A stretch of DNA of 28,644 nucleotides from the IMG/VR virus record IMGVR_UViG_3300025073_000448. One strand, written 5' to 3'. Each line of letters begins with the position of its first letter. Position 1 is the first letter of the stretch. Source of the stretch: a virus. Position numbers and translations under genes: made by a program. Shown here in pieces: positions 3,001-25,256 of this stretch. The notes under the pieces were generated by a model that made no database searches, was not told the origin of the DNA, and saw nothing but the letters and a program-made list of their open reading frames with translations.

Positions 3001-6000
3001 CAGTCACGCAATCCACCGCTACGAAGGAAGCAAAATCCGCCCCCACCCCCACCGCCAAGCTGGAATCCGCCGCAGACCACATGAAGGCCATAGCGGATGG
3101 CATAAAGAAAATCAACGCCATCTTCGGGGAAGAGGGCTCATTCTCCACCGCTCCCATCTCTTCTTCAGCCTCCTCGACCGCTCCCATCTCCTCTTCCAAG
3201 CTTGACGAAACCAAGTGGCGGCAGATCCGCCCCATCCTGGACGAAATGTGGGGCCATGCGGTTGCCACTGGACAGGATGTAAAAGACTTCGTATCATTGG
3301 TATTGGATAGCCTTAGCCTCAAGGCCGCTCCTTATTTCGAGCGGTTTATCGAGGAGAAGTTTTCTGGAAACGAAGAAGTATCGACTCAGAAGGGGGAATC
3401 AGATGCCGATACCGCCTCTCCCGGACAGCAGGAAGCGAGCGATCAAGGCGTGGTTGGAGACCTACAGGAAGAGGGACTTCGACCGGATGAAGAAGAACGA
3501 GACGCTGAATCAGTTCGTGGAGGACTTGGACAGCCAGATGAAGGAGGAATATCTCCAGGAGATCGATCAGATTCTGAACGAGTTGATAGCCGAGAAAATC
3601 CAGGGAACCAACGAGGGATTGATGCAATACCAGACCCGGACCAGGGAGGCGTGGGAGAGGATATTTCACAAGCACCTGCCGGCAAGGGAAGAGAGCGTGG
3701 CAAAGGCGGCGTAACAACGAAGCCCGCCAAAAAGAAAGGTAACGACTACTCCGCTCCGGTTGGAAGCCTCAAGCGCGAAGGCTCTTGGCTGGATACTGCC
3801 AAGCGGAGCGTCGAGATCATTGAGCTTGCCGTAAAGATCGACGCAGAGAAACGCACGGCTACCCCTGCCGAGCAGGAGCTGCTTTCAAAGTATGTAGGCT
3901 TCGGGGCAGGCGAGATCAGGAACAAACTCTTCCCAGCCCACAGCAATACCCCACTCACTCAAATCTGGCCCAACTATTCCATCTACGATCAGTCGTGGAA
4001 AGACCTTGCCGAGCGTCTTTCAAAACTCCCCGAGCAATGGCAAAAGACACTCCTCCAATCCACTCAGTACGCGCACTACACAAGCGAAGGCGTGACCCGG
4101 CAGATGTGGGAAGCCGCAAAGCATCTAGGCTTCACCGGCGGGCATGTTCTCGAGCCTGGAATGGGAATCGGGAATTTCTTCATGACCATGCCGGAAGGAC
4201 TCAGGAAGGTTTCCACCTTCACGGGAATCGAGTTCGACGGACCGACGGCGCTTATTGCAAAGCATCTTCTCCCAAGACAACAGGTCCTGCACGACGATTA
4301 CACCAAACGGAAACTCCCCAAGAACTTCTTTGACTTTGCCATCGGTAACCCGCCCTTCGCGTCCATACCCATCACCAACGACCCCGACTACGCGAAACAC
4401 GAATTCTCTCTTCATGATTACTTCTTTGCTAAGACGGTTGACCTTGTTCGCCCGGGCGGGATGGTTGCCTTTGTGACCAGTCGCCACACCATGGACCGGC
4501 AAGGGGATAAGGCGAGACGGTATCTCCAGGAGCGGGCCGACCTCATCGGAGCCATCCGGCTTCCCCAGATGGCTTTCCAGGACAATGCCGGGACGTCGGT
4601 CGTAACGGATGTCCTGTTCTTCCGGAAACGCCAGGAAGGCGAGGAGCAAAATGGCAACGCATGGTCGAAGCGCGTTGAGATCGAAACGAAGGACGGCCCG
4701 GTCAACATCAACGAATACTATGCGGCCCACCCGGAAATGATCTTGGGTCAGGTTCGCAAGACCGGCCACACCGACGATGTTGGGAGAAGAATCGGCGGTG
4801 AGCGTGGGTACGATCAGCCCACGGTGATTTCCTACTACGAAGACTATGCGGACCTCGACGCTGCTTTCGCGGAAGCCGTAAAGAAGCTCCCGAGCAACGT
4901 GTTCTCGATCACTACCAAAGATGCCGAAAGCATCAAGCGAGAGACCGAGGCCATTGAATTCAACCCGAAGGTGCGCCGGGAAGGGGCTCTTTACCTGGAT
5001 GAGAAGGGCAATGTTCGGCGCGTGCAAGGCGGAGTAGGTGTTGATTTCTTTAAGGGGGCTACGCCGCTCCTCGAGTCGAAGCGTGAGTGGTTCAAGGACT
5101 TCGTTTCGCTGAAGGGTGCCGTCAATGCCGCAAGGTTCGATCAGTACAACGATGGGCCATGGGAAGCATCCCTGAAGAAGCTCCAGAGCGCGTACAACAA
5201 ATTCAGAACGAAGCATGGCCCCATCCTGGATTTCACCACGAGAACGACCACCAGGACCGATGAGGACGGAAACGAGTACCAGATTCAAAGTCGCACGTTC
5301 AAGAACAAACGGTTCTGGGATCAGGATTACGATTCGGCTCTCATCACCCAGCTCGAAAAAATCACAGAGGAAGGCGAGATTGTAAAGTCGGCGTTCCTCA
5401 CCGAGCGCACCATCGGGAAACCGGTTCAGGCCGAAGTCAAAACCATTCACGACGCCATGGCCGTTTCACTCGATGCCGTTGGAAAGCTGGATCTAAACGA
5501 CATTGCGACTCGCATGGGGATCAGCCAGGAAGATGCCATCGAAACGCTCGACGATCTCATCTACCGGGACGTCTCGGGCGAATGGATGCTTGCCGATGAA
5601 TACCTTTCCGGAGATGTGGTGAGGAAACTTGACGAGGCTCGCACCGCCGCCGAACTTGATCCTTCTCTTCAACGGAACGTCGAGGCGCTCCAGAAGGTTC
5701 AGCCTACGCCGCTCGGGCATAGTCAAATTCGCGTCTTGTTAGGTGCTGGCTGGATACCTGACCGATACGTTACCGAGTTCGCATCGGAAATTCTCAACGC
5801 CGGGGAGGCGTCTTACGATAGACGAACCGAGACGTGGACCGTAGCCGGCGGGAACATGAGGTCCGAGCGCAGGTCCGGGAACGAATACGGGACGAATGGC
5901 CGCTCTCCTTCCGAGATACTGGAAGCGGTATTGAATGGCAGGCGCATCGTCGTCAAGAGAACCGAGAAGGATGCCTCGGGGAGGACTTATACATACACAG

Positions 6001-9000
6001 ACAAGGAATCAACTGAAGCCGTAAACGACATCACGAAGAAGATGAAAGAGAAGTTTTCTTCATGGATCTGGACCGACAGTGCCAGGACATCCGACCTGCT
6101 CGACGTTTACAATCGCACCAAGAACAACATCGCACCCAGGCGCTTCAACGGCTCCCACCTCACCCTTCCCGGTGTGTCCTTGAAGTATAAGCTCCACGAC
6201 CACCAGAAACGTGCTGTTTGGCGCATCATCCAGACTGGGGACACGTATCTCGGGCATGCCGTCGGAGCCGGGAAGACGCTCGAGATGATTTCCGCCGGCA
6301 TGGAGATGAAGCGGCTTGGCCTCGTCAAGCGGCCGTGGTACGTCGTGCCGAATCACATGCTTGAGCAGTTCGCCAACGAGTTCATGGATCTCTACCCGCT
6401 CGCCAACATCATGGTTGCCGACAAGGAGGCATTTCACAAAGATAAGCGCAAGGAATTCGTCGCACAGGCCACGCTGAACAACCCGGATGCCGTGATTGTC
6501 ACTCACTCCGCCTTCGAGCGCATAGGAGTCAAGGAAGAGTCAGTGGCTCCCATCAGGGAAAAGCTCGTAACCGAGTTGACCGAAGCCCTCGACGATACCG
6601 AAGACAGCGACAGGATCAGGCGCTCGGCGCTCCAGCGACAGATAGAAATTGTGGAGCGCAGGTTCGATTCCATCACGGGTAGTTCCGGGAAGGATGTAGC
6701 TATCACCTTCGAGGAAACTGGATGTGATTTCCTCTTTGTGGACGAAGCGCACAACTACCGCAAGCTGGATTTTCACACAAACAGGAAGCTCAAGGGTATC
6801 GACCCAAACGGTGCAAGAAAATCCATGGATATGTACGTCAAGGTGAAATTCCTCGACAGTAAGAATCCTGGAAGGTCTCATGTCTTCGCATCCGGAACCC
6901 CACTCACCAACACCATCGGGGAAATGTACTCCCTCATGCGGTTTTTCATTGAGGATCGCATGCAGGAAGAAGGCATGTCCACCTTCGACGGGTGGGCATC
7001 CACCTTCGGAGATTCCAAGATTTCCTTGGAGCCCAACGCCGCCGGAAACTATGAGAACGTCGAGCGGTTCGCCACGTTCGTAAACGTGCCAGAGCTTATG
7101 AGCCGGGTGCGATCGTTCATGGATGTTCTCACTTCGGATCAACTCGGCTCCATTGTAAAGCGGCCTGACTTGGAAGGGGGGAAGCCCGAGATTATTGCCG
7201 TGCCGTCCACTCCCGAGCAGGAGGATTACAGGTCCGGGCCGTTGTCCGAGAGAGTCGCGGCGTCCAAGAGATGGAAGCCATCATTTCAGCAACGAAACAA
7301 TCCGGACCCGATGATCGCCATCATCTCCGAGGGAAGGAAGGCATCCATTGATCCGCGCTTTTTCGATCACACTATCTCGGAGAAGACGCCATCCAAGCTT
7401 AACCGCATGGCCGACGAGATCATTGCCGAGCACAAAAGAACGAAGCTCTTCACCTTTGAGGGAATCGACGGAAAGCAGGAAGCCAAGAAGGGTGGAGTGC
7501 AGATCGTTTTCTACAACCTTGGATTCGGGGCACAACTCAGGGCGAAGAATGCCTTCGACGCACGCGACGCACTTACGAGGCGATTGACCGCCGGCGGAAT
7601 TAAGCGGGATGAAATCGCGTGGTTTGACGATGCGGACACCGATGCCAAGAAGGAGAGGGTTTTCAAGGAGGCGCGGCTCGGAAACATCCGGGTGGTCATT
7701 GGATCAGCCAAGAAGATGGGGACCGGCGTGAACATCCAGAAGCGCCTGACCGCCATGCACTACCTCGACCCTCCGTGGTATCCGGCCGACTTCGAACAGC
7801 CGCAGGGGAGAATTATCCGGCAGGGTAATCAGAACGAGACGGTCAGGGTCAAGCTCTACGCCACGAAGGGCTCTTACGACGAGACCATGTGGTCAATGGT
7901 GGCCAGGAAGCAGAAGCAGATCGACCAGGCGTTCAGTGGGGATGCGAGTGTTCGGAGCATCGAGGACATCTCCGAGGCGAGTAGTTACGAGATGGCTGCG
8001 GCCCTGGCCTCCGGTGATCAGCGGATTTTGCAGTTGGCCGGGCTCAACCAGGACATCGATAGGCTCGACCGGCTGGCGGCCGCTCATGCTTCATCGCAGC
8101 ACGCCATAGCCTACGATTTGGACAATATCCAGCGGTATCAGTTGCCGGGACGGCGCGAGCGGTTGGCGAAGCTGAAAGAGGCCAAGAACTTTGCGGATGA
8201 TAGTTACGCCACGTACAAGTCCGGGAGCGTCGAGGGACGGAGCTTCGACCACAAGCAGAAGGATGAGTTCGGTGCTGCCATCAAGGCGGCGTATAACAAG
8301 GCTATTGTCGATCATGCGGCTACGCTCAAAAAGAACAGCAAGAGCGGGTGGCGAGTCGTTGCAACCATCGGGAAGGTGAACGACAAGTATCCCCTGCGCG
8401 TGAATGTCTACCAGTGGGATGAATCAATTGATGCCGCCGAGCTCGAGCTTGGCATTGGTCCTCTTTGGTTCGAAATTCAAACCGGCAAGGTATTGAATGA
8501 AACGGTGTCCGACAGTGGCTTGATCACCAAGTCCATCAACATCGTGAATCGACTTCCGCGAGACATCCGGGAAGTGGAAGACACTATCGAAGAGCATGAG
8601 ACCGAAGTGAAGCGCCTCAGCAAAGTCCTGGGCGCTCCCTTTGAGTACGAAGCCGAACGGGCCGACAAGATCGCTGAGAAGAACCGGCTTGAAGCCGAGC
8701 TGGTTTCCGAAGGTGTCGCGGCCAATGCGCCGCACCAGAACGCACCGCCCCCGGGCGTGATTTCTCAGAGTGGGAGTGGCGAAGTCATAGAGGAAGAGGA
8801 GTCTCCAAGAACGACTTACAGAACCGGCCCTACTCCAGGGGCAGCGACGGGTTACACCAACCTATACTCAGGTTTCCCGGTAGACGAGTTGATCCGCGAA
8901 ATCCGCGCGGCCAAGGCGGGTATAGAATCCCTTCTTCCAGGCCAGATCTCCGACATCATGCCACGCCTAACCGACCTCGGCACCCGCATAATCGCCCGCG

Positions 9001-12000
9001 GCTTTGATACGGCCCGCACCTTCAAGGAAGAGCTGTCCCGCGTTCTCGGAGACGCCTTCGACGCCGTGCGCCGGTACGTGCTGAAGATATTCGCTGCCGC
9101 GCAACGGGCTTATGCGAAGCTGCCTGATGCCGTGAAGAATGAGTGGGGGACTTTTGCAGGTCCCAAGGCGCAGTGGTGGGACAAGGCCGAGGGAAAGTTC
9201 ACGAGCTTGTACGACAAGAGGGAGAAGGTTGAGATTGATGATTCGAAGATGGTGGTCGATGAAGATTTCCTGAATAGGAAACGAAGCAAAACTTATGTTT
9301 TGTCTGACATCGTAGAACATCCTGAGTTATTCGAGAACTATCCAGAAGCCATGAATATCAAGGTGAAGCTAACCCCCCTCCGTGGATATGGCGGCAACAT
9401 GGGTGGCAATACAATGGAAATAGCCACTGACTCGGATAAGGCGGATAGAAGACAAACGATTATTCATGAACTCCAGCATTGGATTCAAGGTCGAGAAGGT
9501 TTTGCGGTTGGAGGATCGGTTGGCACGGTTCTCAGAAGTTCTCCATTTTCCGCAAAGCAAGAGGGTTTAGTGGACCACCTTATCAACGCTTTACATTCTG
9601 AGTCATGGCCAAAAGGGAACGCGCTTCATGGACTTTCTCCAATTGAACGAGTGGATTGGTTCGTGAATCGAGAAATCCAACGAGGCATGTCGGAAAGCAA
9701 AGCAATGGAGGCAAGGGATTATACACTGTCCCTTCCTGGAGATCGCAAGAAAGCAGAGCGACAATTCGAGAAGGATATCTCCGAGAAAAGAATCTCTCGG
9801 AAATCAGACTACATGAGGATGGCGGGCGAGATTGAGGCCAGAGACGCAACATCCAGGGGAAGCATGTCCACAGAGCAACGCCGCGCAACGCCACCCTACT
9901 CTTCCGAGAACATCGCGCCCGAGGACGCCATTGTGCGGTTTGGGGGCGGCGAGGCTCAGATGTCAGCAACGGAAGATACTGCCGAAGAATCCAGAGCCCA
10001 AAGGAGGCGACTTGAGAAAAACCAAGGACAGCAAAGACTCTTTGATGAAGGTGGTAAAGCCCGTGATCTACCCACTGCCAAGCAGGAACGATCTGACCGA
10101 GGGACAGAAGGACGAGAGACAAGCCCCGTACAGGTCGAGCAGTCAATCACGAGTCTTCCAGAATACCGAAAGGTAATCAAGAAGCACATCAAGGAAGAGG
10201 GGATTTTAAAACGTCCAGATACCTACGTGATCCAGAACGCGGATACCGACGACAAGCCTACCCTCGTGGTTGTGACGGGTAAGGTCGGAGATCCCAAGAA
10301 GGTCAGTACATACGATTTGTCGAAGATGTCGCCGGGCGGATTAAGGCAGGTCAAAAAGTGGGCTGATACGGCAAGACCAGGGAAAGCCCCACTGTTTCCT
10401 GCCGACAACGTTTATCCTCTTAGGCATACGCCTCCGCAGATGGCAAAGCCAGATTACAAGCCTGGACAGAAATCAGAGCCATATCGATTCCTGAATCAAA
10501 AGACCGGCAAGATGGAATCTTCGGCCACTCCCGCTTCGAGGGTCCAATTCGCAATAGCCCCCAAGGATCTCCCTGAATCAGCGAAGGCGAAGCTGGCGGG
10601 GACTCGGGTTGTTGACGAAAACGGGGAGTTAAAACTTGTCTATCACGGGACCCCTAATGCCGATTTTCAGCAATTTGATTTGTCGTTAGCAGGAAAAAGC
10701 ACAAAAGCTAAAAGCGCAAAAGAGGGGATCTGGTTTGCATCCCGTCCAGAGACAGCGGAGACATACAGTGGCTTCGAGCAAGAACCAGGGAGCACTGGCG
10801 GCCCAGGCATAGGCCAATATTATCTGAAAATGACAAATCCAAAAATTATCGACATGGATGATCTGTTCAAGAATAACATCGAGAGGTTTGATTCGATTTC
10901 CATAGCCTATGAAATGAAACTTGCCAAGCAGGAAGGATATGACGGTTTAATCCTAAAGAACAATTTCGATACCGGACCCAAGAAATTATTTGATCGAGAA
11001 GCATTCAAGAAGACAAGGCGAATGCCTCAAGATATGTACGCCGTCTTCTCCCCCGACCAGATAGTCTCGGTCCTGAGCCCTGAGGCATCGGTCAAGGGCT
11101 CATTCAAAGAAGCCCCCATCGTGGGATACAGAAGAGAAGCCAAGTCCATTGAATCGAGCCTTCCACCGATCAAGGAGGGCATGACCAGGCTTTGGAGAGG
11201 CAACAGAGAAGGCGAGGTCGGAACCGCGACTCAATTCACCAACGATCTTCCAGGGATAGCCATTCCATTTAGGAATATGTATGGTGGCGGGCTCTCGTAT
11301 GTGGATGTTCCCACAAAAGATTTGACAAAATATGAGCAGCGAGTAGCGGCGGCCCCTGGGGCCGAGTTCAATTTGCCGGATGAGCTTGCAAGAAACGCTC
11401 GCAATGTATCTGGCATTGGCATGGAAGGGGAGAAGGCTACGACGGAGATCAATGAATCAAGAAACTCTCCCCTCGCAAACGAAGCGGGCTTCATCAGGCT
11501 TCCCTCTCTCGGCAACATTTCCCAATCAGCAACCGACCAGCTAGCCGGGACTCTCCTCTCCATCCGCAACCTCTTCCATCCCAAGGACGCAAGCCTCATA
11601 GGAAGCATCCTGCAATCCCCGGAGTACAGGAAGAACCTGCAAGAGAAGGATGCCTTCGAGGCGACACAGTTCCGCGAAGAGCGGCGTCATGAAATCTTCA
11701 TCGACCACAAGGAGCCCATCGACCTCATGGCCGGGATGAAATTCGCCAATGCTACGAAACTTGGTGGAAAAATCAATATGGGCCGCTTCAAAACCTACGA
11801 CCGGTACAACATCAACGACCCGAAGAACTCCCACCTTCCAAGGGACTACCGTCAAACCTGGAAGATCATAGACGACATGGATGCAAAAGAGATCTCCTGG
11901 AAGGACTACAAGGAGAAGCTGATCGCGCGGAACAAGGAGCGCGCCAGATCCGGGAAGGGTGAGGCCGTATCTTCGAGGGTCATTTCCGCAATCGACAAAA

Positions 12001-14510
12001 TCAGGTCCTCTTATGATGACCTCCTCGAGTACATGCGGCGCCCGATCAAGGAAGTGATCGACTACCTTGACGAGCAGGCAAGGAAGAAAGCCGAGCAGGG
12101 AGTGACCGGCGAGGAGGTGGATGACCCGGCAATCGAGATCCCCTTGGGGAATGGCAAGACCAAGAAGTACCGCAAGAGCGAGCTTATGGAGATGTATATG
12201 TCCATGGGGCAGCTCAAGGGCTTCTATGCTCCGCGCATCCGGGCGCCGGGAGATTACTTCGTTCGCGGGAAGGACGCCGAGGGGAATTTCTACCGATACC
12301 ATACGCCGAGAGAAGATCAAGCAGAGATCCTCCGCCGCCAGCTCGAGCGCCGCGGCTTCACCAACCTGGAAACGGGAAACATCGCCAAACTCCCAGAATC
12401 CATCTATCAGGATATCAGCATCATCGACATGGGGAAGGCCATTGAATACTCGGTGAGCAAGGCCGACATCAACGACCCCAATGTCAGGGCCCAGATGCAG
12501 GCCGAGATTTTGTCCTCGGCATCGAACATGCTGAAGGCCCGCGCTTTCCGGTCGCACAAGATCGCGCGGCAGAACCGAGGGGAGATGGCGCGGTATATCC
12601 TTGAAGGGACAGGGGCTGACGCTAAATGGACACTGAGGGAAGACTGGAAAAGCTACACTCCGGGAAAGGCCGCGAAGGATGGAAGGCCGGCCGAAGCACC
12701 GCGTATGCCATCCGGCATCGTAATCGACAGCATCCCCCTTTCAAGGGAAGAGCGTGAAGCTTTGTCCGCTTCTCCTTCTCCTTCTCCTTCTCCTTCATCT
12801 CCATCCCCCGGCAAAAAGAAAACGAAGCTCATGCGCGTGGGCTGGACCCCGCCGGTCAAGGGCTACATCGAGGATCCACTCGAGAGATACACCATCTACC
12901 TTTCACAGATCTCCGGCGGCGTTGCCAAGGGCGAGGCAGGGAAGAAGATGTACGCCGCCCTCATGGCCGTAGATGCGGCGAACGAGCGCGAGCGGTATAA
13001 ACGCCTCAAGAACTACATCACCGAGCAGCTCAGAAATCCGGATGCCTGGGATCGCCGCATCGCCATGGGGAAAAGTATCATTTCCTTTAAGTACCTGGGG
13101 CTCAATCCGCGCTCGGCGTTCGTCAACACCACGGCGACCGTCACCACGGCCCCGCCGGCAATCCTGAAATATACCCTCGGAAACGACGGTTCACTCATGG
13201 AGATCCTGGGGGCCATAAAGACGGCGGCCGTGGATTATGTCTCGGTCATGCGCGGGGGCTCGCTAAAAAACAAGGATGAGCAGGCCTTCATGGATGAGAT
13301 CTACCAGAAAGGATATGCCTCTCCCCAGCTCACCAGGGATGCCATGCGGAATGTGCAGGGTGCTTTCGGGAACACCTGGGGCAAAATCATGGACGCTTCC
13401 ATGTGGGGATTCGGAAAGACCGAGCAGTGGAACCGCGGGACCACCATGCTTGCGGCTTACCGGCTCGCTCGAAAGCAAGGGCAAACTCACGAGAAGGCCA
13501 TGAAGGGAGCGAGGGAGGCAAGCGACAGGGCGCACGGTGTTTACGGGCGCGCCACCCTTCCTTCCTGGGCGCTCGGGGACAACCCATTCGCCAAGATTGC
13601 ACAACTCGCCTACACGTATCAGAAGTTCGGGCACAACTACTTCCAGATGCTGACCGACATGGGGGCAGACATGGGGGCCGATAGGAAAAGCATCAAAGCT
13701 TTTGCCTTCGCTCTGGGAGCCCCGGCCGTTGTCGGCGGAGGCAAAGCCTTCATCGGCTACAAGGCGCTCATGATCGCTCTCGGGGTCATACTCTCTCAGC
13801 TTGGCATGGGTGATGACGACCCGGAAAAGTGGATCTATGACACCATTCGCCGCGAGCTTGGAAGCGCCGCCGAGGTCACGGCGAGATACGGCCTGGTGGG
13901 TGCCGGCGGGTACGGATTCGATATTTCATCTTCACTCGCCGTTGGCATGGAGCTTCCCCGCACCTTCTCGGATCTTATCGGCCCCTTCGGAGGGATCTAC
14001 AAGAACGTCGAGCAGGCTTCGAAATTTGCCCTTCAAGGACAGGGTTGGCGCGCCGGCGAGGAACTGGCCCCGTCCTTCCTTGGAAACGTCATGAGGGCAC
14101 ACAGGGAATTTGTCGAGGGTGGCTCAACGAAGTCTCTAAACCCGATCTGGGATGAGAACGGGAAAATCTACCAACCCAAGGGACGGGAGATCGCCGGGAA
14201 GGTTGTGGGGTTCACCTCGGCCGAGCGGTCAACGATCCAGGCGAGAACCTGGGAATCCAAGAAGGAGGTGGCGAACTATGCCGAGAAGAGGAAGCGGATC
14301 TATGCGGCGTATCGTGGCTACCTCCTCGATCCCGAAAGATCCAAGGAAGAAGAGAAAAGGATTTACAAGCTCATCGAGGAATACAATGAAGGCGTCACGG
14401 CCAGGAAGAAGCAGGCGTTGATTCCATACGTTACGCCGGAAAGCTTGAGAAGAGAGACGAAGAACATCATGGAGCCGAGCAGGAGGGAGCGGGCACTGCT
14501 GGCGGAGTAG
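3..14510 (+). CDS. Giant polyvalent (probably virion-injected) protein with DarB-like methyltransferase-helicase core; 5'-truncated by the window
   Basis: The frame is open from nt 3 (NQIELPEKAGKLKAM...), so ATG 45 is probably internal. It ends at TAG 14508-14510. Domain motifs are listed separately below. Confidence 0.93.
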   Translation, partial: NQIELPEKAGKLKAMQAIKDHYMKGVSGEQPATTTEPPPSRPIDTTGTAATTASVKMFLTKADIAALKNLGWDDASINKMKPEEGARIISEAMKGEAPNAQGIRSDEGQVYPGGNVQRQGLREGGQDLEFPKSEEPGGEAARQGAAEEVGQEEPAGLEGQKTREGLEREAPPLQGEQTEQEDPTAIAKQSLKTPLDIAAHEAASSPLNDKPQPTTPQIKADNAELGHFSFQGIPISIESPIGSVRKDVNHDPPKWQRVIKEAHYGRIKGVRGRDKDLLDVFVRTDNMQPAPEGSDNEAGRTGKAFVVDQIDPETGKFDELKVVLGAKDEQQARKTYLANYPEGWQGLGAITEFTIPEFKAWLRGGDATKRVGKKAPKEIETDKGVVKQKEDVDLPFAAGLAEQLAERKRMDQMASAPKTRIELMGKLKDGTANGVFVLGDDQLDLWWLPGNYAKDVRGYSGLDLIRLARTGMEPGAIYLRHPGWYAQNPTPEERKVIDEIVKFLGKDAPDRPGEFVDIQDIINAKRDKGKEPASAPPVTPKQTRTGPTAETAARKPLKEKTEPVTVAEKGESTKKEEAPPSSRPTPSTPAQPAPSAPPTLTVSDLDTKSIIVKGDYTANKDRIAPVLKQHSGLYNGKHKGWVFPKKNEAAVRAALGIGAEQKAEQPPPSRETEQVVSALDQTKEKALARYVEGMKQYLGEERAEERGRYWIDKIDSKDVVTLRETMNGINPELNRLFSTITGLPAKTQKDADASLRSLNPNKWDEWQGDKKREREKKESDRAEKIKKDAEDQVLDEKVSYNGNVTTRRDIYQNMVASGYTQIETRRRGVVDEFFLVNPKTEMQVKVPKPAVDFVRGLVDAVEAKRDKTSDLPDISEEDADHLFGTKKKPEPATQPETQRIVVGKNRDGDTIYSDDKGARYILEGGMRVQSFVLRPGYIDEQFMTVEEVDAKKPRSEDALAEPITPSRPATTKSMADASREDVMAELRKQMKERGEKTEPAVTQSTATKEAKSAPTPTAKLESAADHMKAIADGIKKINAIFGEEGSFSTAPISSSASSTAPISSSKLDETKWRQIRPILDEMWGHAVATGQDVKDFVSLVLDSLSLKAAPYFERFIEEKFSGNEEVSTQKGESDADTASPGQQEASDQGVVGDLQEEGLRPDEEERDAESVRGGLGQPDEGGISPGDRSDSERVDSRENPGNQRGIDAIPDPDQGGVGEDISQAPAGKGRERGKGGVTTKPAKKKGNDYSAPVGSLKREGSWLDTAKRSVEIIELAVKIDAEKRTATPAEQELLSKYVGFGAGEIRNKLFPAHSNTPLTQIWPNYSIYDQSWKDLAERLSKLPEQWQKTLLQSTQYAHYTSEGVTRQMWEAAKHLGFTGGHVLEPGMGIGNFFMTMPEGLRKVSTFTGIEFDGPTALIAKHLLPRQQVLHDDYTKRKLPKNFFDFAIGNPPFASIPITNDPDYAKHEFSLHDYFFAKTVDLVRPGGMVAFVTSRHTMDRQGDKARRYLQERADLIGAIRLPQMAFQDNAGTSVVTDVLFFRKRQEGEEQNGNAWSKRVEIETKDGPVNINEYYAAHPEMILGQVRKTGHTDDVGRRIGGERGYDQPTVISYYEDYADLDAAFAEAVKKLPSNVFSITTKDAESIKRETEAIEFNPKVRREGALYLDEKGNVRRVQGGVGVDFFKGATPLLESKREWFKDFVSLKGAVNAARFDQYNDGPWEASLKKLQSAYNKFRTKHGPILDFTTRTTTRTDEDGNEYQIQSRTFKNKRFWDQDYDSALITQLEKITEEGEIVKSAFLTERTIGKPVQAEVKTIHDAMAVSLDAVGKLDLNDIATRMGISQEDAIETLDDLIYRDVSGEWMLADEYLSGDVVRKLDEARTAAELDPSLQRNVEALQKVQPTPLGHSQIRVLLGAGWIPDRYVTEFASEILNAGEASYDRRTETWTVAGGNMRSERRSGNEYGTNGRSPSEILEAVLNGRRIVVKRTEKDASGRTYTYTDKESTEAVNDITKKMKEKFSSWIWTDSARTSDLLDVYNRTKNNIAPRRFNGSHLTLPGVSLKYKLHDHQKRAVWRIIQTGDTYLGHAVGAGKTLEMISAGMEMKRLGLVKRPWYVVPNHMLEQFANEFMDLYPLANIMVADKEAFHKDKRKEFVAQATLNNPDAVIVTHSAFERIGVKEESVAPIREKLVTELTEALDDTEDSDRIRRSALQRQIEIVERRFDSITGSSGKDVAITFEETGCDFLFVDEAHNYRKLDFHTNRKLKGIDPNGARKSMDMYVKVKFLDSKNPGRSHVFASGTPLTNTIGEMYSLMRFFIEDRMQEEGMSTFDGWASTFGDSKISLEPNAAGNYENVERFATFVNVPELMSRVRSFMDVLTSDQLGSIVKRPDLEGGKPEIIAVPSTPEQEDYRSGPLSERVAASKRWKPSFQQRNNPDPMIAIISEGRKASIDPRFFDHTISEKTPSKLNRMADEIIAEHKRTKLFTFEGIDGKQEAKKGGVQIVFYNLGFGAQLRAKNAFDARDALTRRLTAGGIKRDEIAWFDDADTDAKKERVFKEARLGNIRVVIGSAKKMGTGVNIQKRLTAMHYLDPPWYPADFEQPQGRIIRQGNQNETVRVKLYATKGSYDETMWSMVARKQKQIDQAFSGDASVRSIEDISEASSYEMAAALASGDQRILQLAGLNQDIDRLDRLAAAHASSQHAIAYDLDNIQRYQLPGRRERLAKLKEAKNFADDSYATYKSGSVEGRSFDHKQKDEFGAAIKAAYNKAIVDHAATLKKNSKSGWRVVATIGKVNDKYPLRVNVYQWDESIDAAELELGIGPLWFEIQTGKVLNETVSDSGLITKSINIVNRLPRDIREVEDTIEEHETEVKRLSKVLGAPFEYEAERADKIAEKNRLEAELVSEGVAANAPHQNAPPPGVISQSGSGEVIEEEESPRTTYRTGPTPGAATGYTNLYSGFPVDELIREIRAAKAGIESLLPGQISDIMPRLTDLGTRIIARGFDTARTFKEELSRVLGDAFDAVRRYVLKIFAAAQRAYAKLPDAVKNEWGTFAGPKAQWWDKAEGKFTSLYDKREKVEIDDSKMVVDEDFLNRKRSKTYVLSDIVEHPELFENYPEAMNIKVKLTPLRGYGGNMGGNTMEIATDSDKADRRQTIIHELQHWIQGREGFAVGGSVGTVLRSSPFSAKQEGLVDHLINALHSESWPKGNALHGLSPIERVDWFVNREIQRGMSESKAMEARDYTLSLPGDRKKAERQFEKDISEKRISRKSDYMRMAGEIEARDATSRGSMSTEQRRATPPYSSENIAPEDAIVRFGGGEAQMSATEDTAEESRAQRRRLEKNQGQQRLFDEGGKARDLPTAKQERSDRGTEGRETSPVQVEQSITSLPEYRKVIKKHIKEEGILKRPDTYVIQNADTDDKPTLVVVTGKVGDPKKVSTYDLSKMSPGGLRQVKKWADTARPGKAPLFPADNVYPLRHTPPQMAKPDYKPGQKSEPYRFLNQKTGKMESSATPASRVQFAIAPKDLPESAKAKLAGTRVVDENGELKLVYHGTPNADFQQFDLSLAGKSTKAKSAKEGIWFASRPETAETYSGFEQEPGSTGGPGIGQYYLKMTNPKIIDMDDLFKNNIERFDSISIAYEMKLAKQEGYDGLILKNNFDTGPKKLFDREAFKKTRRMPQDMYAVFSPDQIVSVLSPEASVKGSFKEAPIVGYRREAKSIESSLPPIKEGMTRLWRGNREGEVGTATQFTNDLPGIAIPFRNMYGGGLSYVDVPTKDLTKYEQRVAAAPGAEFNLPDELARNARNVSGIGMEGEKATTEINESRNSPLANEAGFIRLPSLGNISQSATDQLAGTLLSIRNLFHPKDASLIGSILQSPEYRKNLQEKDAFEATQFREERRHEIFIDHKEPIDLMAGMKFANATKLGGKINMGRFKTYDRYNINDPKNSHLPRDYRQTWKIIDDMDAKEISWKDYKEKLIARNKERARSGKGEAVSSRVISAIDKIRSSYDDLLEYMRRPIKEVIDYLDEQARKKAEQGVTGEEVDDPAIEIPLGNGKTKKYRKSELMEMYMSMGQLKGFYAPRIRAPGDYFVRGKDAEGNFYRYHTPREDQAEILRRQLERRGFTNLETGNIAKLPESIYQDISIIDMGKAIEYSVSKADINDPNVRAQMQAEILSSASNMLKARAFRSHKIARQNRGEMARYILEGTGADAKWTLREDWKSYTPGKAAKDGRPAEAPRMPSGIVIDSIPLSREEREALSASPSPSPSPSSPSPGKKKTKLMRVGWTPPVKGYIEDPLERYTIYLSQISGGVAKGEAGKKMYAALMAVDAANERERYKRLKNYITEQLRNPDAWDRRIAMGKSIISFKYLGLNPRSAFVNTTATVTTAPPAILKYTLGNDGSLMEILGAIKTAAVDYVSVMRGGSLKNKDEQAFMDEIYQKGYASPQLTRDAMRNVQGAFGNTWGKIMDASMWGFGKTEQWNRGTTMLAAYRLARKQGQTHEKAMKGAREASDRAHGVYGRATLPSWALGDNPFAKIAQLAYTYQKFGHNYFQMLTDMGADMGADRKSIKAFAFALGAPAVVGGGKAFIGYKALMIALGVILSQLGMGDDDPEKWIYDTIRRELGSAAEVTARYGLVGAGGYGFDISSSLAVGMELPRTFSDLIGPFGGIYKNVEQASKFALQGQGWRAGEELAPSFLGNVMRAHREFVEGGSTKSLNPIWDENGKIYQPKGREIAGKVVGFTSAERSTIQARTWESKKEVANYAEKRKRIYAAYRGYLLDPERSKEEEKRIYKLIEEYNEGVTARKKQALIPYVTPESLRRETKNIMEPSRRERALLAE
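298..450 (+). CDS. Overprinted 50-aa basic helical protein (+1 frame inside the giant ORF)
   Basis: AAAGGAG (282-288) lies 9 nt before ATG 298. Translation: MPKGYEAMRDRFIREGMSRDKACEKAAKIWNSQNPRNPVGKRHVKAPPKK*. The host frame here is a low-complexity linker. Confidence 0.6.
   Translation: MPKGYEAMRDRFIREGMSRDKACEKAAKIWNSQNPRNPVGKRHVKAPPKK
585..1110 (+). other. Inorganic pyrophosphatase-like (InPase) domain of the polyvalent protein
   Basis: ISIESPIGSVR...HYGRIKGVRGRDKDLLDVFV...FVVDQIDPETGKFDELKVVLG...YLANYPEGWQGLGAIT...FKAWL matches the polyvalent-protein InPase pattern. Confidence 0.85.
3403..3714 (+). CDS. Overprinted 103-aa helical protein, TnpV-like (+1 frame inside the giant ORF)
   Basis: AGGGGGA (3391-3397) precedes ATG 3403. 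The sequence is amphipathic and helical (WLETYRKRDFDRMKKNETLNQFVEDLDSQM...REAWERIF). The host frame is a D/E/G/R-rich disordered linker. Confidence 0.65.
   Translation: MPIPPLPDSRKRAIKAWLETYRKRDFDRMKKNETLNQFVEDLDSQMKEEYLQEIDQILNELIAEKIQGTNEGLMQYQTRTREAWERIFHKHLPAREESVAKAA
3740..4910 (+). other. DarB-like N6-adenine DNA methyltransferase domain
   Basis: SKYVGFG, AHYT, motif I VLEPGMGIGNF, motif IV NPPF (4347-4358), HDYFFAK, AIRLP...F...AGTSVVTDVLFFRKR. Confidence 0.9.
6100..8080 (+). other. SNF2/SF2 helicase domain (DarB-like)
   Basis: Q motif LHDHQKRAV, Walker A HAVGAGKT (6255-6278), DEAH (6741-6752), ASGTP, MGTGVNIQ, QPQGRIIRQGN. Confidence 0.92.
9138..9940 (+). other. LPD23-like domain with zincin metallopeptidase motif
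   Basis: EIDDS...LSDIVEHPELFENYP...IIHELQHWIQGREGFAVGG (HExxH at 9465-9479)...YMRMAGEIEARD. Confidence 0.8.
10599..11075 (+). other. ART-PolyVal-like ADP-ribosyltransferase domain
   Basis: VVDENGELKLVYHGT...FD...GIWFAS...AETYS...YLKMTNP...GYDGLIL...YAVFSPDQI. Confidence 0.82.
11170..11400 (+). other. Second, minimal ART-like domain
   Basis: TRLWRG...QFTND...YVDVP...EFNLP resembles the R-S/T-E strand pattern of the ART fold. Confidence 0.45.
11480..14510 (+). other. C-terminal helical/hydrophobic region like that of PLxRFG-domain ejection proteins
   Basis: YAPRIRAPGDYFV (12225-12263) resembles YFPLxRFGDY. Also YLGLNPRSAFVN, EQWNRGTTMLAAYRLA, HGVY, YQKF and a Gly/Ala-rich hydrophobic stretch. 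Confidence 0.6.
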
Positions 14511-17249: not shown

Positions 17250-18245
17250 TTACAGAAGTGACCTCCCTCGAAGTTGGGGCAGTTCTTTTCGTGCTGGCAC
17301 ATCAAACCACTCAAGCACGGTAGGATACACGTCAACGGTGCAGGCCCCTCCATCGGCCCACCGTTGACGCAACGGAATGTCCGTAGCACACCAGGACCAC
17401 GGAGCGTTGAGATGGCGAAACTCGGCCCCGTCGAAACCATGGTCCGAGATGACCATGACGTGCGTTCTCTCACGGTCGATGCCGCTGAGCACCCGACCAA
17501 GCGTTTCGTCGCATCGCTCTATCTCGTGCTCGTATTCAGGGCTCTCTCCACCGAATGCGTGGCCGAACTTGTCCGGATTCAAGTGACAGAAGATGATCGA
17601 TTTTCGGTTTCGATGCGAGAAGTTCACGGCAGCTTTCGCAAGCGATTCCATGTAAGGATCGTCAATGGATCGAGGCTTTACGGTGACGCAAAGCTGTGCG
17701 TTTTGACCAATACGGGCAAGAGGGCTCTGCGCGTCTTCTACCCCGAGATACCCACGTTTCGACGTGAGCCATGCGGTACTGAATCCGTGCTGTTGCATGG
17801 CCCATTGGAGGGTATGCTCGTATGGAATACCTGAGAACCACCCAACCCGGGCAAACTGTCCATGCTGCTGGTCGTAGTGCTCGGTCCACTCCATGGGGCG
17901 ACCGACCATTGTATGATTCCCGAAGGCCCCGGTTTGTCGCGCGGTAAGCCCCGTGAAAATTTCAGTCCATACAGGGATGGTGAGGCTTGCACCAGTCGGG
18001 GCTAGCGGGGTCAGATGCGCGCCGGGCTCGTGCAGGAAGGAAGTGAGGTTCGGGAGCCTTTTGTCGTGCATCATTCTTCGGGCGTGGGGGTGGCCTACGC
18101 TGTCCCAGGCTAGCATGAGGAGGCTGTCGCGGGGGGTTGTGGACGTGGATGTGTTGGATGCCGCGCTGATTTTGGGCATGGCCGTTGCCAATGCCGCCGA
18201 ACTCAACGCCGCCCCTGTTGTCTTGAAAAAGTCTCGTCGCCTCAT
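17250..18245 (-). CDS. Tat-exported alkaline-phosphatase-superfamily (nucleotide pyrophosphatase/phosphodiesterase-like) enzyme
   Basis: Twin-arginine signal MRRRDFFK. Metal and catalytic motifs: AWDS, SLTIPVWTEIFTG (Thr nucleophile), PDKFGH, ISDHG and a downstream H. Confidence 0.85.
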   Translation of the reverse strand: MRRRDFFKTTGAALSSAALATAMPKISAASNTSTSTTPRDSLLMLAWDSVGHPHARRMMHDKRLPNLTSFLHEPGAHLTPLAPTGASLTIPVWTEIFTGLTARQTGAFGNHTMVGRPMEWTEHYDQQHGQFARVGWFSGIPYEHTLQWAMQQHGFSTAWLTSKRGYLGVEDAQSPLARIGQNAQLCVTVKPRSIDDPYMESLAKAAVNFSHRNRKSIIFCHLNPDKFGHAFGGESPEYEHEIERCDETLGRVLSGIDRERTHVMVISDHGFDGAEFRHLNAPWSWCATDIPLRQRWADGGACTVDVYPTVLEWFDVPARKELPQLRGRSLL

Positions 18246-22510: not shown

Positions 22511-22951
22511 CTACTCAGCAGCCACCTCCCTTCCAGGCATTGACACAACCTTCCCCTCTTCACGGCCCTTCTTCTCAGCTTCTCTCGCTTCCTTCAGTCG
22601 CGCCTCTTCCTCCCGCAACTGATCCCGCATGTGCATTTGCTTCGGGTCAGCCGATTCATACATCACGGGACATCCATTCTTGATACCCAGGTAGCCCTTG
22701 GTGGGGTACGATTTCAGCGGGGCCAACTTGGCGGACACGTCATGAGTGATGTCCACGAGCTCGCGCTCTTCGTCGGATTTGAGGGAAACGGTGAGGGTGA
22801 TCTTGCGAACCGTCGTGGCCTTGGTGTTGGGGTCCTGCATGTTCCTCAGTACCTGCTCGAGTACATGCTCGAAGCGTTCAGCCAGGGCGCCGCCGGCCAG
22901 GTTATCGAAGCTCATGGGGGTGGGTTGATTGGGTTGTCTGTTCTGCGACAT
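22511..22951 (-). CDS. Phage protein of the family often labelled 'replication terminator protein'
   Basis: LAGGALAERF...VLRNMQDPNTKATTVRKITLT...KLAP; SD AAGGAG. The functional label is not verified. Confidence 0.75.
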   Translation of the reverse strand: MSQNRQPNQPTPMSFDNLAGGALAERFEHVLEQVLRNMQDPNTKATTVRKITLTVSLKSDEERELVDITHDVSAKLAPLKSYPTKGYLGIKNGCPVMYESADPKQMHMRDQLREEEARLKEAREAEKKGREEGKVVSMPGREVAAE

Positions 22952-23020
22952 TTTGTTTTGCTCCTTCTTTGCGGTGATTGGTTGAGAGATGTCAGTAATG
23001 TCACGCTCATCGTCTATCTT

Positions 23021-23058
23021 GTTTCAATCCACGCCCCCCCCCCTGAGTGGGGAGCGAC
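23021..23058 (-). CRISPR. Solitary type I-C-like CRISPR repeat unit (no array)
   Basis: Minus strand GTCGCTCCCCACTCAGGGGGGGGGGCGTGGATTGAAAC has the GTCGC start, GC stem and GCGTGGATTGAAAC end of I-C repeats. It is 38 nt because of an expanded G-run. No second copy was seen. Confidence 0.8.
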
Positions 23059-23074
23059 TCACTCAGGCATCACA

Positions 23075-24598
23075 TTAATGCCCTTCACCATCTTCGTTTT
23101 TCTTGTTCTTTTCACTCCTCCTATTTGACTCCCTGATAGCCTCCACGACAACCCCGGCATCCGATAAGTCATCTCGGCAGAACTCCACATCGTTGCCCTC
23201 GAAGTCGAGGAGGTTGATCGAGCATTCCCCCTTCTCGGCATTGATCTCAATGGAGTAGCCGTCGGCAAGGTTTTCTATTATGGCTCCGAGGAGATCGTGA
23301 AAGTCCATCCTGAGCTTGGAAGGTTTAGAAGCAATGAGTGAATAATCTTCTACTTTCCATTCCTCTATTTGAGCATCGAAGGAATAAGTGCTTCCGTCAT
23401 TTCGTGGACGGGGCGCTTCATATTTGTTTTTGGCTAACTCAGCACTTTTTCTAGTAGCGTGAAGACTAATTACATCCCACTCGTCGCCATCTGATCCACT
23501 ACCAGTCGTGAGAATGAAAACGATTTTATCGTTTTCGGAAGAGAGGATCTTTTCTTTCAAGGCATCCCGTTCTTTCTTTAACGCATTCCGCTCTTTCTCA
23601 ACCTCACGGTAATTCCTTCCAAGATCTTCGTGATTCATGTGCATTCTGGCAAGGCTTTCGCTGAGCCTCATCACCTGCGCTTCCTGGGACGTAGAGGGGA
23701 TGGAGGGGGTGGATGGGATAGAGAAGGATGGATAATACTCATGTGTCGGCTTCATCCCCTTCTCGGCCAGCTTCTCCTCGAGAACGAGTAGTAGCTTTCG
23801 GCTCAGAATCGAAACCACCTTATTCTTTTTGGAGAGCTTCCTTGTTTTCCATGCAATCTCACCCTCCTGCCATGCAATCTCTTTATCCTTCCTGGCCAAC
23901 TCTTCCTTGCACTCATCGAGCTCCACTTCTCGCTCGGTCAGTTTGTCTTTGACCTCCGACTTTTCCCTGCACAACAGATTGTATTCCTCTTCCACAATAG
24001 CGTTTCTGATTATGAGGCTATTGCTTTCCTTTGTGAGCCCTACAACCTCGTCTTTTTCTTTACCAAGCGCAACGCTGAGCTGCATGATCTGATCTGATTT
24101 CGCAGTATTCTCCGCAATGATTCCAGCGGGATCACAGTTCGTTTCAAGATCGTGGATATACCTTCGAAGAGGAGGGGGCAGGGCGTTGATGTTTTCCGAA
24201 GTGGGGCGCCAGCCTACCCAGTACACGGGGTTATTCCCCTCCATTTCCCACGGCCTATCCTCACTTATCGACTTTCCACCCCAAACCGCCCACCACTTAA
24301 TGACCTTGTACTGCTCCGGATCAAGGGGAAGCCTTGCGCCACTCACAAGATCGGCCGACACATTCCCGTCGATGTCCACCCAGGCGTCATATTCGCATCC
24401 TTCGGTGACGTGGCAAGGTCTCACCGTGCTGCCCGTGCTGCCCGGCGTGGAAGATGAGAGGCTTTGCGCTTGTACGCTTTGCTTGGCTCGGATTACCCTG
24501 GGCACCAGATCTCCGAAGGGATACGATGACGAACGGTAGGATAGGGCTGGGGATGGGGTGGCGTGGCTGTATGATGGTGTGGTATTTGTTTCACTCAT
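23075..24598 (-). CDS. Mosaic multi-domain phage accessory protein with central coiled coil
   Basis: 507 aa; SD AAGGAG; several small globular segments joined by S/P-rich linkers. Confidence 0.8.
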   Translation of the reverse strand: MSETNTTPSYSHATPSPALSYRSSSYPFGDLVPRVIRAKQSVQAQSLSSSTPGSTGSTVRPCHVTEGCEYDAWVDIDGNVSADLVSGARLPLDPEQYKVIKWWAVWGGKSISEDRPWEMEGNNPVYWVGWRPTSENINALPPPLRRYIHDLETNCDPAGIIAENTAKSDQIMQLSVALGKEKDEVVGLTKESNSLIIRNAIVEEEYNLLCREKSEVKDKLTEREVELDECKEELARKDKEIAWQEGEIAWKTRKLSKKNKVVSILSRKLLLVLEEKLAEKGMKPTHEYYPSFSIPSTPSIPSTSQEAQVMRLSESLARMHMNHEDLGRNYREVEKERNALKKERDALKEKILSSENDKIVFILTTGSGSDGDEWDVISLHATRKSAELAKNKYEAPRPRNDGSTYSFDAQIEEWKVEDYSLIASKPSKLRMDFHDLLGAIIENLADGYSIEINAEKGECSINLLDFEGNDVEFCRDDLSDAGVVVEAIRESNRRSEKNKKNEDGEGH

Positions 24599-25006: not shown

Positions 25007-25071
25007 TCGTATATGCTCCTTCCATTCGAGGTTATCATCCTTCACCTTTCATTTTCACAAATTCCACCACA

Positions 25072-25099
25072 ATCCTACCAAAAAAAATCCAGAATGCAA
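25072..25099 (-). promoter_or_regulatory. Putative leftward sigma70 promoter
   Basis: Minus strand TTGCAT-16 nt-TAGGAT with an extended -10 TGn. Confidence 0.55.
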
Positions 25100-25133
25100 G
25101 ATGTTTTTCACTAAAATATTCCGCAAATAGTGC

Positions 25134-25163
25134 TTGACTTACATGTTTTTCTCGTGAGATATT
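25134..25163 (+). promoter_or_regulatory. Putative rightward sigma70 promoter
   Basis: TTGACT-18 nt-GATATT with an extended -10 TGn, in the AT-rich divergent gap. Confidence 0.55.
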
Positions 25164-25256
25164 GGCGTTGATGGAATACTCGTGGAAGATTGTTGTATTG
25201 AGCCACGATATTTTTTCATTAATCCATTTATTCCTTGAAAGGGGGAGTTAAAGACT

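Follow-up and report, generated by a model that had tools for sequence, protein, structure and literature searches.

Solitary CRISPR repeats carried by phages have recently been recognised as a means of counter-defence and, to our knowledge, very few of those of type I-C have been tested. RacrIC1, which lies 11 nt after acrIC5 on a bicistronic RNA, inhibits the type I-C system (Camara-Wilpert et al. 2023, PMC10651486). The SRUFinder definition used in that study asks for a single complete repeat, with no further repeat, whole or partial, inside 100 bp, at an intergenic site of a virus or plasmid that lacks associated cas genes (PMC10651486). The repeat has to match a known CRISPR repeat of a defined subtype with identity and coverage of 90% or more, and the host has to carry a CRISPR-Cas system of that subtype. 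The viral Cracrs (Liu et al., bioRxiv 10.1101/2024.10.29.618823) are also found in cas-less phages, and in their case a repeat-derived unit is followed by a conserved stretch of spacer length; I-C examples exist. They are defined by similarity to host CreA/CreR and by at least 9 PAM-proximal matches to a target, and they silence host cas or CreT. Viral cas-less mini-arrays (reference 4 in PMC10651486; review PMC11656645) have two or more repeats, and their spacer has a target.

The locus described here belongs to the phage record IMGVR_UViG_3300025073_000448 (85,285 bp, CheckV 98% complete, 54% G+C), of which the window, that is the whole stretch of DNA analysed (28,644 nt), is a part. As indicated by the record names, the samples behind the phage records are groundwater metagenomes. 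A type I-C repeat unit occupies a 123-nt intergenic gap, in the orientation of both flanking ORFs. The features are as follows (window positions).

23075-24598, minus strand: 507-aa ORF upstream of the unit, encoding a coiled-coil protein with a C-terminal domain at about residues 430-496
23059-23089, minus strand: upstream stretch of about 30 nt that travels with the unit; homology to contig L185 (see below) begins here
23058 to 23021, minus strand: solitary type I-C CRISPR repeat unit, 38 nt, GTCGCTCCCC-ACTCA-G10-CGTGGATTGAAAC; from 5' to 3', GU, 8-nt 5' stem half (23056-23049), loop (23048-23040), 8-nt 3' stem half (23039-23032) and 11-nt handle (23031-23021)
23034-23043, minus strand: G10 run, six G of which are part of the 3' stem half while the remaining four enlarge the loop
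23021-23031, minus strand: 11-nt 5' handle, UGGAUUGAAAC; predicted Cas5c cut between 23032 and 23031
22952-23020, minus strand: 69-nt leader of the 146-aa gene, made of a 35-nt pseudo-spacer (23020-22986), a linker and an AAGGAG ribosome-binding site (22966-22961)
22511-22951, minus strand: 146-aa ORF, PHROG 997 with a faint YfdP match; the unit is part of its leader in three lineages

The stop codon TAA of the 507-aa ORF is at 23077-23075 and is separated from the unit by 16 nt (23074-23059), and 69 nt (23020-22952) lie between the unit and the ATG at 22951. These are exactly the spacings given by the first-pass annotation, which had placed a single intergenic repeat on the minus strand, the strand of the surrounding operon. 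A pattern combining 5' GTCGC and 3' GTGGATTGAAAC matched once in the whole 85,285-bp record, confirming a single copy, and its reversed control did not match; the 13-nt 3' part of the unit had one exact match in the window. By our own arithmetic, about 6e-10 chance matches are expected for 24 specified bases in some 170 kb of two-strand sequence, and the match is therefore not due to chance. Local and semi-global alignments, compared with shuffles and random genome windows, revealed no second partial repeat within 100 nt on either side (p 0.43-0.80), and a profile search of the 85-kb record found no Cas5d or Cas7 homologue. The locus thus carries one full repeat, solitary and intergenic, in a virus without associated cas genes. 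The earlier statement that the window contains neither cas genes nor a second repeat was correct; fuller assemblies of about 93 kb add a type I-E mini-array outside the window.

The unit is best placed in the known class of viral solitary repeat units, with an arrangement closest to that of RacrIC1, and its kind is not new. Like RacrIC1 and the other viral solitary units (PMC10651486), it is one full I-C repeat at an intergenic site of a cas-less phage; RacrIC1 is 11 nt and the unit 16 nt from the upstream stop, and both have the operon sense and keep the hairpin and the handle. Unlike RacrIC1, the unit is not adjacent to a recognisable acr gene, and its loop is enlarged by a run of G8 to G10; in addition, it lies in the leader of the following gene, with which it moves. 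It is likened to the Cracrs by layout only and, unlike the Cracrs compared, has no second repeat-like element. The mini-arrays share the reliance on host Cas proteins, whereas the unit has a single repeat and a pseudo-spacer for which no target was found. What this locus adds to the class is natural conservation evidence, enlarged-loop variants and the pairing with an I-E mini-array.

We then compared the unit with natural repeats. A search of 185,579 species genomes for its 5' and 3' parts yielded at least 120 loci. Long arrays make up the majority of the matches listed and come from MAGs of Chloroflexota, Acidobacteriota, Lentisphaerota, Clostridia and other groups. In the loci listed, some 2,250 repeat copies measure 32-34 nt and have a 2-nt overhang and a 4-5-nt loop; their stem is CGCTCCCC/GGGG(A/G)GCG and their 11-nt tail TGGATTGAAAC. 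In these loci, the unit's 5' GTCGCTCCCC and 3' GGGGGGCGTGGATTGAAAC are identical to those of real I-C array repeats, and its U-G wobble stem variant is found in hundreds of array copies. The unit therefore has the 2-nt 5' overhang, the 8-bp stem (U-G variant included) and the 11-nt handle of the natural GTCGCTCCCC...GGGG(A/G)GCGTGGATTGAAAC family, which bears out the type I-C assignment made from the window. The loop alone differs, being enlarged by the G run: the natural repeats have loops of 4-5 nt and stand in arrays, whereas the phage unit is 36-38 nt long, has a loop of 7-9 nt and stands alone. Runs of eight or more G did not occur in the array repeats examined in the loci listed.

The closest repeat among the matches listed is a 34-nt repeat with the loop ACTTA in a Bacteroidales MAG (L146), from which the unit differs by one changed loop base and four extra G. 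Identity to this repeat is 33/36 (92%) for the G8 form of the unit found in a sister lineage and 33/38 (87%) for the G10 form. Beyond the matches listed there may be a closer repeat. Enlarged-loop variants may slip past the 90% identity filter used for cataloguing and would then represent a missed class of candidates. The Rfam model CRISPR-DR9 matched the unit weakly, under its gathering score (20.4 bits, E 0.026). The unit is missing from the part of the published viral solitary-repeat catalogue that was compared; this part does list further solitary I-C units recovered from these aquifer samples.

BhaCas5c reportedly recognises its substrate through the stem base, the UGG that follows the cut and the 3' overhang, and it accepts mutations of the loop and of the 5' overhang (PMC8524198); the cut position between 23032 and 23031 was deduced from this biochemistry. 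All of these determinants are present in the unit and are conserved across lineages that are about 15% diverged. The predicted repeat hairpin has a free energy of -15.0 kcal/mol, compared with about -15.8 for natural repeats, and dominates the ensemble (P 0.83-0.98). By its sequence and predicted hairpin the unit thus qualifies as a type I-C repeat and predicted Cas5c substrate with an atypical loop length, and the cleavage at the stem base by Cas5d/Cas5c that had been proposed, leaving the 11-nt handle (23031-23021) downstream, holds as a prediction. A free loop with everything else fixed matches what Cas5c reportedly reads, and the natural variants are in this respect evolutionary evidence that selection keeps the Cas5c-read bases and leaves the loop unconstrained. 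The series G6, G8 and G10 is also a ready set of substrates for loop-size effects on Cas5c binding and turnover.

As a whole, the intergenic RNA folds no more stably than its shuffles do (z 0.05). Upstream of the unit, a small hairpin GGGCAU/AUGCCU (23083-23065) holds the TAA stop in its loop; its stems are kept in L185, where the loop is changed. The arm CCTGAGTG (23067-23060) is perfectly complementary over 8 bp to CACTCAGG (23049-23042) inside the unit and could trap the 5' stem half. This competing hairpin (-12.7 versus -15.0 kcal/mol for the repeat hairpin) occurs in the window and in the G8 lineage, and we calculate a chance of about 1% that a stretch as short as this would give rise to it. 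Its two top pairs are disrupted in L185, where it also has an extra bulge; we thus rejected it as a conserved switch, and it could act in the window's own lineage. In addition, UGG(A)UUGA of the handle can pair with UCAACCA at +34 to +41 of the leader, with an outer helix GGUGA/UCACC that has one compensatory pair. Given the z of 0.05 against shuffles, and since 17 other viral I-C solitary units have no comparable anti-handle, this pairing was dropped.

The conservation of the unit was studied in three lineages. The G10 run is present in 6 of 6 independent assemblies encoding the identical 507-aa protein and is therefore not a sequencing artefact, and a sister lineage, whose 507-aa protein is 88% identical (local DNA about 95%, genome-wide mosaic of 81-99%), has G8 in five assemblies. 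Since the two lineages are otherwise identical over about 700 nt around the unit, this pair is uninformative on selection. The third lineage is represented by L185, a 1.7-kb ENA contig whose unit has the loop TCTCAT followed by G8; run length is thus fixed within lineages (G10, G8 and T+G8). The L185 homologue of the 146-aa protein is 74% identical, coding identity to the window is 81-85%, and third codon positions are 21-25% diverged. In contrast, the overhang, stem and handle are unchanged at 29 of 29 positions (handle alone, 11/11), and both substitutions inside the unit lie in the loop. With this single diverged comparator of 1.7 kb, the absence of changes (0/29) differs from the 23/107 to 36/143 changes at third codon positions with a Fisher p of 0.0005-0.002. 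The element, whose absence or decay in related phages would have spoken against the first-pass proposal, is present in all three lineages.

Homology between L185 and the window starts about 30 nt 5' of the unit and spans the leader and the 146-aa gene, and the gene upstream in L185 is unrelated; by this comparison of sequences, the unit moves with its downstream gene. The unit is absent from the more distant 146-aa homologues L180-L184 (57-71% identity). The downstream gene of L184 has its start codon one base after the end of a 76-aa protein; because the flanking genes of these more distant relatives abut, the unit, with about 100 nt of surrounding sequence, is an insertion. It is retained in a single clade and can move along with the downstream gene. 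The G runs would be explained most simply by slippage, in copies that an array no longer homogenises.

The operon starts from a divergent region (about 25050-25250); a weak helix-turn-helix protein precedes the 507-aa protein, the unit and the 146-aa protein come next, and a string of proteins annotated without function follows, one of them an alkaline-phosphatase-superfamily phosphodiesterase. No function for the flanking proteins emerged from Pfam, PHROGs, NCBIfam, PDB sequences or the Atlas, and the AlphaFold model of the 146-aa protein is poor (pLDDT 49). Residues 430-496 of the 507-aa protein have a homologue in the 76-aa stand-alone protein of L184 (E 4e-21). In L161 (1934-3741), a distant relative, two genes stand for the 507-aa protein, a 414-aa product corresponding to its N-terminal part and the C-terminus of a 184-aa product to its C-terminal domain, and this split indicates that the 507-aa protein is modular. 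No recognisable anti-CRISPR was found among the neighbouring genes. No promoter-like or terminator-like site flanks the unit, and read-through transcription was therefore assumed.

Several other genes were seen in this region and in its relatives. The same accessory operon encodes, at 17250-18245 on the minus strand, a 331-aa protein of the type I phosphodiesterase/nucleotide pyrophosphatase family (Pfam E 2.7e-20). On the plus strand of the window, a single open frame spans 4,821 codons (45-14510); the protein encoded after it has 890 aa, and its N-terminus resembles tail fibres (PHROG matches). In L180 (5445-6578) and L181 (1806-2939), a TnpB-like gene (OrfB_IS605 and Cas12f1-like TNB) lies two genes 3' of the 146-aa homologue.

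The same phage, in its fuller assembly of about 93 kb, also carries a cas-less I-E mini-array (L176:4122-4211), which lies outside the 85-kb record; the fuller assemblies are tied to the phage by identical 507-aa and 459-aa proteins. Two 29-nt repeats, starting with GTGTTCCCCAC and ending with GGGGATGAACCG, surround a 32-nt spacer in a 143-nt gap between same-strand genes, and the repeat stem has an A-C mismatch. The spacer had no match at up to 6 mismatches in the genome of this phage (G000) or in that of its 89-kb relative (G001), and none in IMG/VR. An I-E-like stretch at G000:24858 turned out to be a coding look-alike inside a 901-aa ORF. The I-E repeat pattern matched 2 of 401 genomes of one class. 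An I-C repeat mimic and an I-E mini-array in one phage would imply hosts with both systems in the aquifer community.

In the leader of the 146-aa gene, the pseudo-spacer is identical to L185 at 32 of 35 positions, with changes at positions 3, 6 and 18, and the rest of the leader is 86% identical. The last 25 nt or so are ancestral, being shared with relatives that have no unit. A weak Rfam CRISPR-DR10 match at 22955-22988 (E 0.24) overlies this ancestral ribosome-binding region; as the DR10-like stretch is present in relatives without the unit and the alignments were negative, we rejected it as a degenerate second repeat. Positions 22988-23005 (minus strand) share 17 of 18 nt with a spacer of an I-C array in an Anaerolineales MAG (L115, minus strand, position 670). 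The match covers leader positions 16-33, a conserved stretch with the direct repeat TGACAT-TAC-TGACAT; it is out of register, its flanks are unmatched, and it is probably due to chance.

The reading we favour, though tentatively, is that the unit is a phage-borne mimic of the host I-C repeat, under selection and carried on the polycistronic mRNA of the accessory operon, where it would serve as a Racr-like decoy. The unit would be transcribed within this mRNA and take up the usual 8-bp repeat hairpin, though with a larger loop. In an I-C host it would be bound by Cas5c and cleaved between 23032 and 23031; an RNA that is not a guide would then occupy Cas5c, probably together with Cas7 subunits, and less functional Cascade would result, as for RacrIC1. 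That the determinants are kept across lineages about 15% diverged supports an RNA that engages host Cas5c, and the I-E mini-array indicates that the lineage already borrows CRISPR parts, a point in favour of a mimic, as is the published listing of further solitary I-C units from these aquifer samples. Against this stand the 2128 spacers of 120 arrays of the unit's repeat family (loci listed), none of which matches the phage, the lack of a promoter-like site directly 5' of the unit and of a recognisable anti-CRISPR neighbour, the identity of about 87% between the G10 form and the closest repeat listed, which is under the 90% cut-off, the single 1.7-kb comparator behind the conservation and the shuffle-like stability of the whole intergenic fold. 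The Racr-like interpretation of the first-pass annotation thus has partial support, from the solitary I-C repeat in operon sense, the conserved Cas5c-read bases and the RacrIC1 precedent, but its variant with a guide found none. According to that variant, which we consider quite improbable, the handle and the 35 nt that follow would load host Cascade as a one-guide crRNA-like RNA and silence a host cas or toxin promoter in the manner of a Cracr, or act against a competing phage. L185 keeps 91% of the pseudo-spacer and, positions 6 and 18 being unpaired in type I guides, two of the three changes fall where no pairing takes place. By our own binomial arithmetic this has a chance of about 0.055, which is suggestive and not significant, and the remaining change falls in the seed, at position 3. 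I-C is among the systems against which viral Cracr RNAs have been described (bioRxiv 10.1101/2024.10.29.618823), and the phage does bear an I-E mini-array. However, even with every sixth base left free, the pseudo-spacer had no match outside the phage's kin in IMG/VR or JGI metagenomes; it had no target elsewhere in the phage itself, and a PAM with 9 seed matches was found neither in 160 loci nor in three phage genomes. Moreover, there is no second or degenerate repeat to supply a 3' hairpin. The RNA may also act as a partial-pairing regulator of a host promoter.

The position of the unit in front of the 146-aa gene raises another explanation, which we think unlikely: a Cas5c-dependent leader, in which the unit would be a processing or docking site setting the 5' end, stability or translation of the linked gene, whose expression would then depend on active host I-C machinery. 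If Cas5c and Cas7 load from the handle, they could extend as far as the ribosome-binding site, which is 55-60 nt away. The common movement of the unit and the 146-aa gene agrees with such a role, as does the somewhat higher conservation of the pseudo-spacer and leader compared with third codon positions (3/35, p 0.02-0.07), and about one third of 18 other viral I-C solitary units lie at most 90 nt 5' of a ribosome-binding site and start codon; yet the more distant 146-aa homologues work without the unit. We know of no I-C sensor of this kind that has been demonstrated. In an extended form, which is very doubtful, the repeat unit, the conserved leader and the 146-aa gene would make up a mobile "CRISPR-sensing" cassette, in which the Cas5c cut and Cas5c-Cas7 loading would report active I-C and the length of the G run would tune the competition with the upstream hairpin. 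If true, this would be a phage riboregulator with a host Cas nuclease as trans factor, and more than a decoy. The unit could also be a leftover, gained from a host array by recombination and now a neutral scar or a generic stable hairpin protecting mRNA ends, and this too does not seem likely. The loop would then be degenerating through slippage of the G run, from G6 to G8 to G10; such a leftover agrees with the lack of a target or acr neighbour and with the presence of the unit in closely related genomes only. At the third-codon rate, however, a neutral scar is expected to have accumulated about 6-7 changes in 29 positions, and none was seen. A generic hairpin does not need an unpaired 11-nt handle, and yet all 11 handle positions are conserved. 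As no U-tract follows the unit, it is not a terminator either.

Two further observations concern repeats elsewhere. A groundwater deltaproteobacterial MAG (L092:2240-2375, PHAZ01000042.1) contains an unrelated solitary I-C unit with a G8 run, in the order partial I-C repeat end, solitary I-C G8 unit, 34 nt and a single type I-E repeat. This locus, which has no homology to the phage, looks like a string of repeat units of mixed subtypes; in the same MAG a Cas8c gene is present, and a search for Cse1 did not find it. Finally, tandem arrays of 15-nt units occur in this phage (G000:33863-33970, AAACGGAATGCCGAT) and, in a form resembling GGGGCATCCCTCAAC, in its 89-kb relative (G001:72993-73320).
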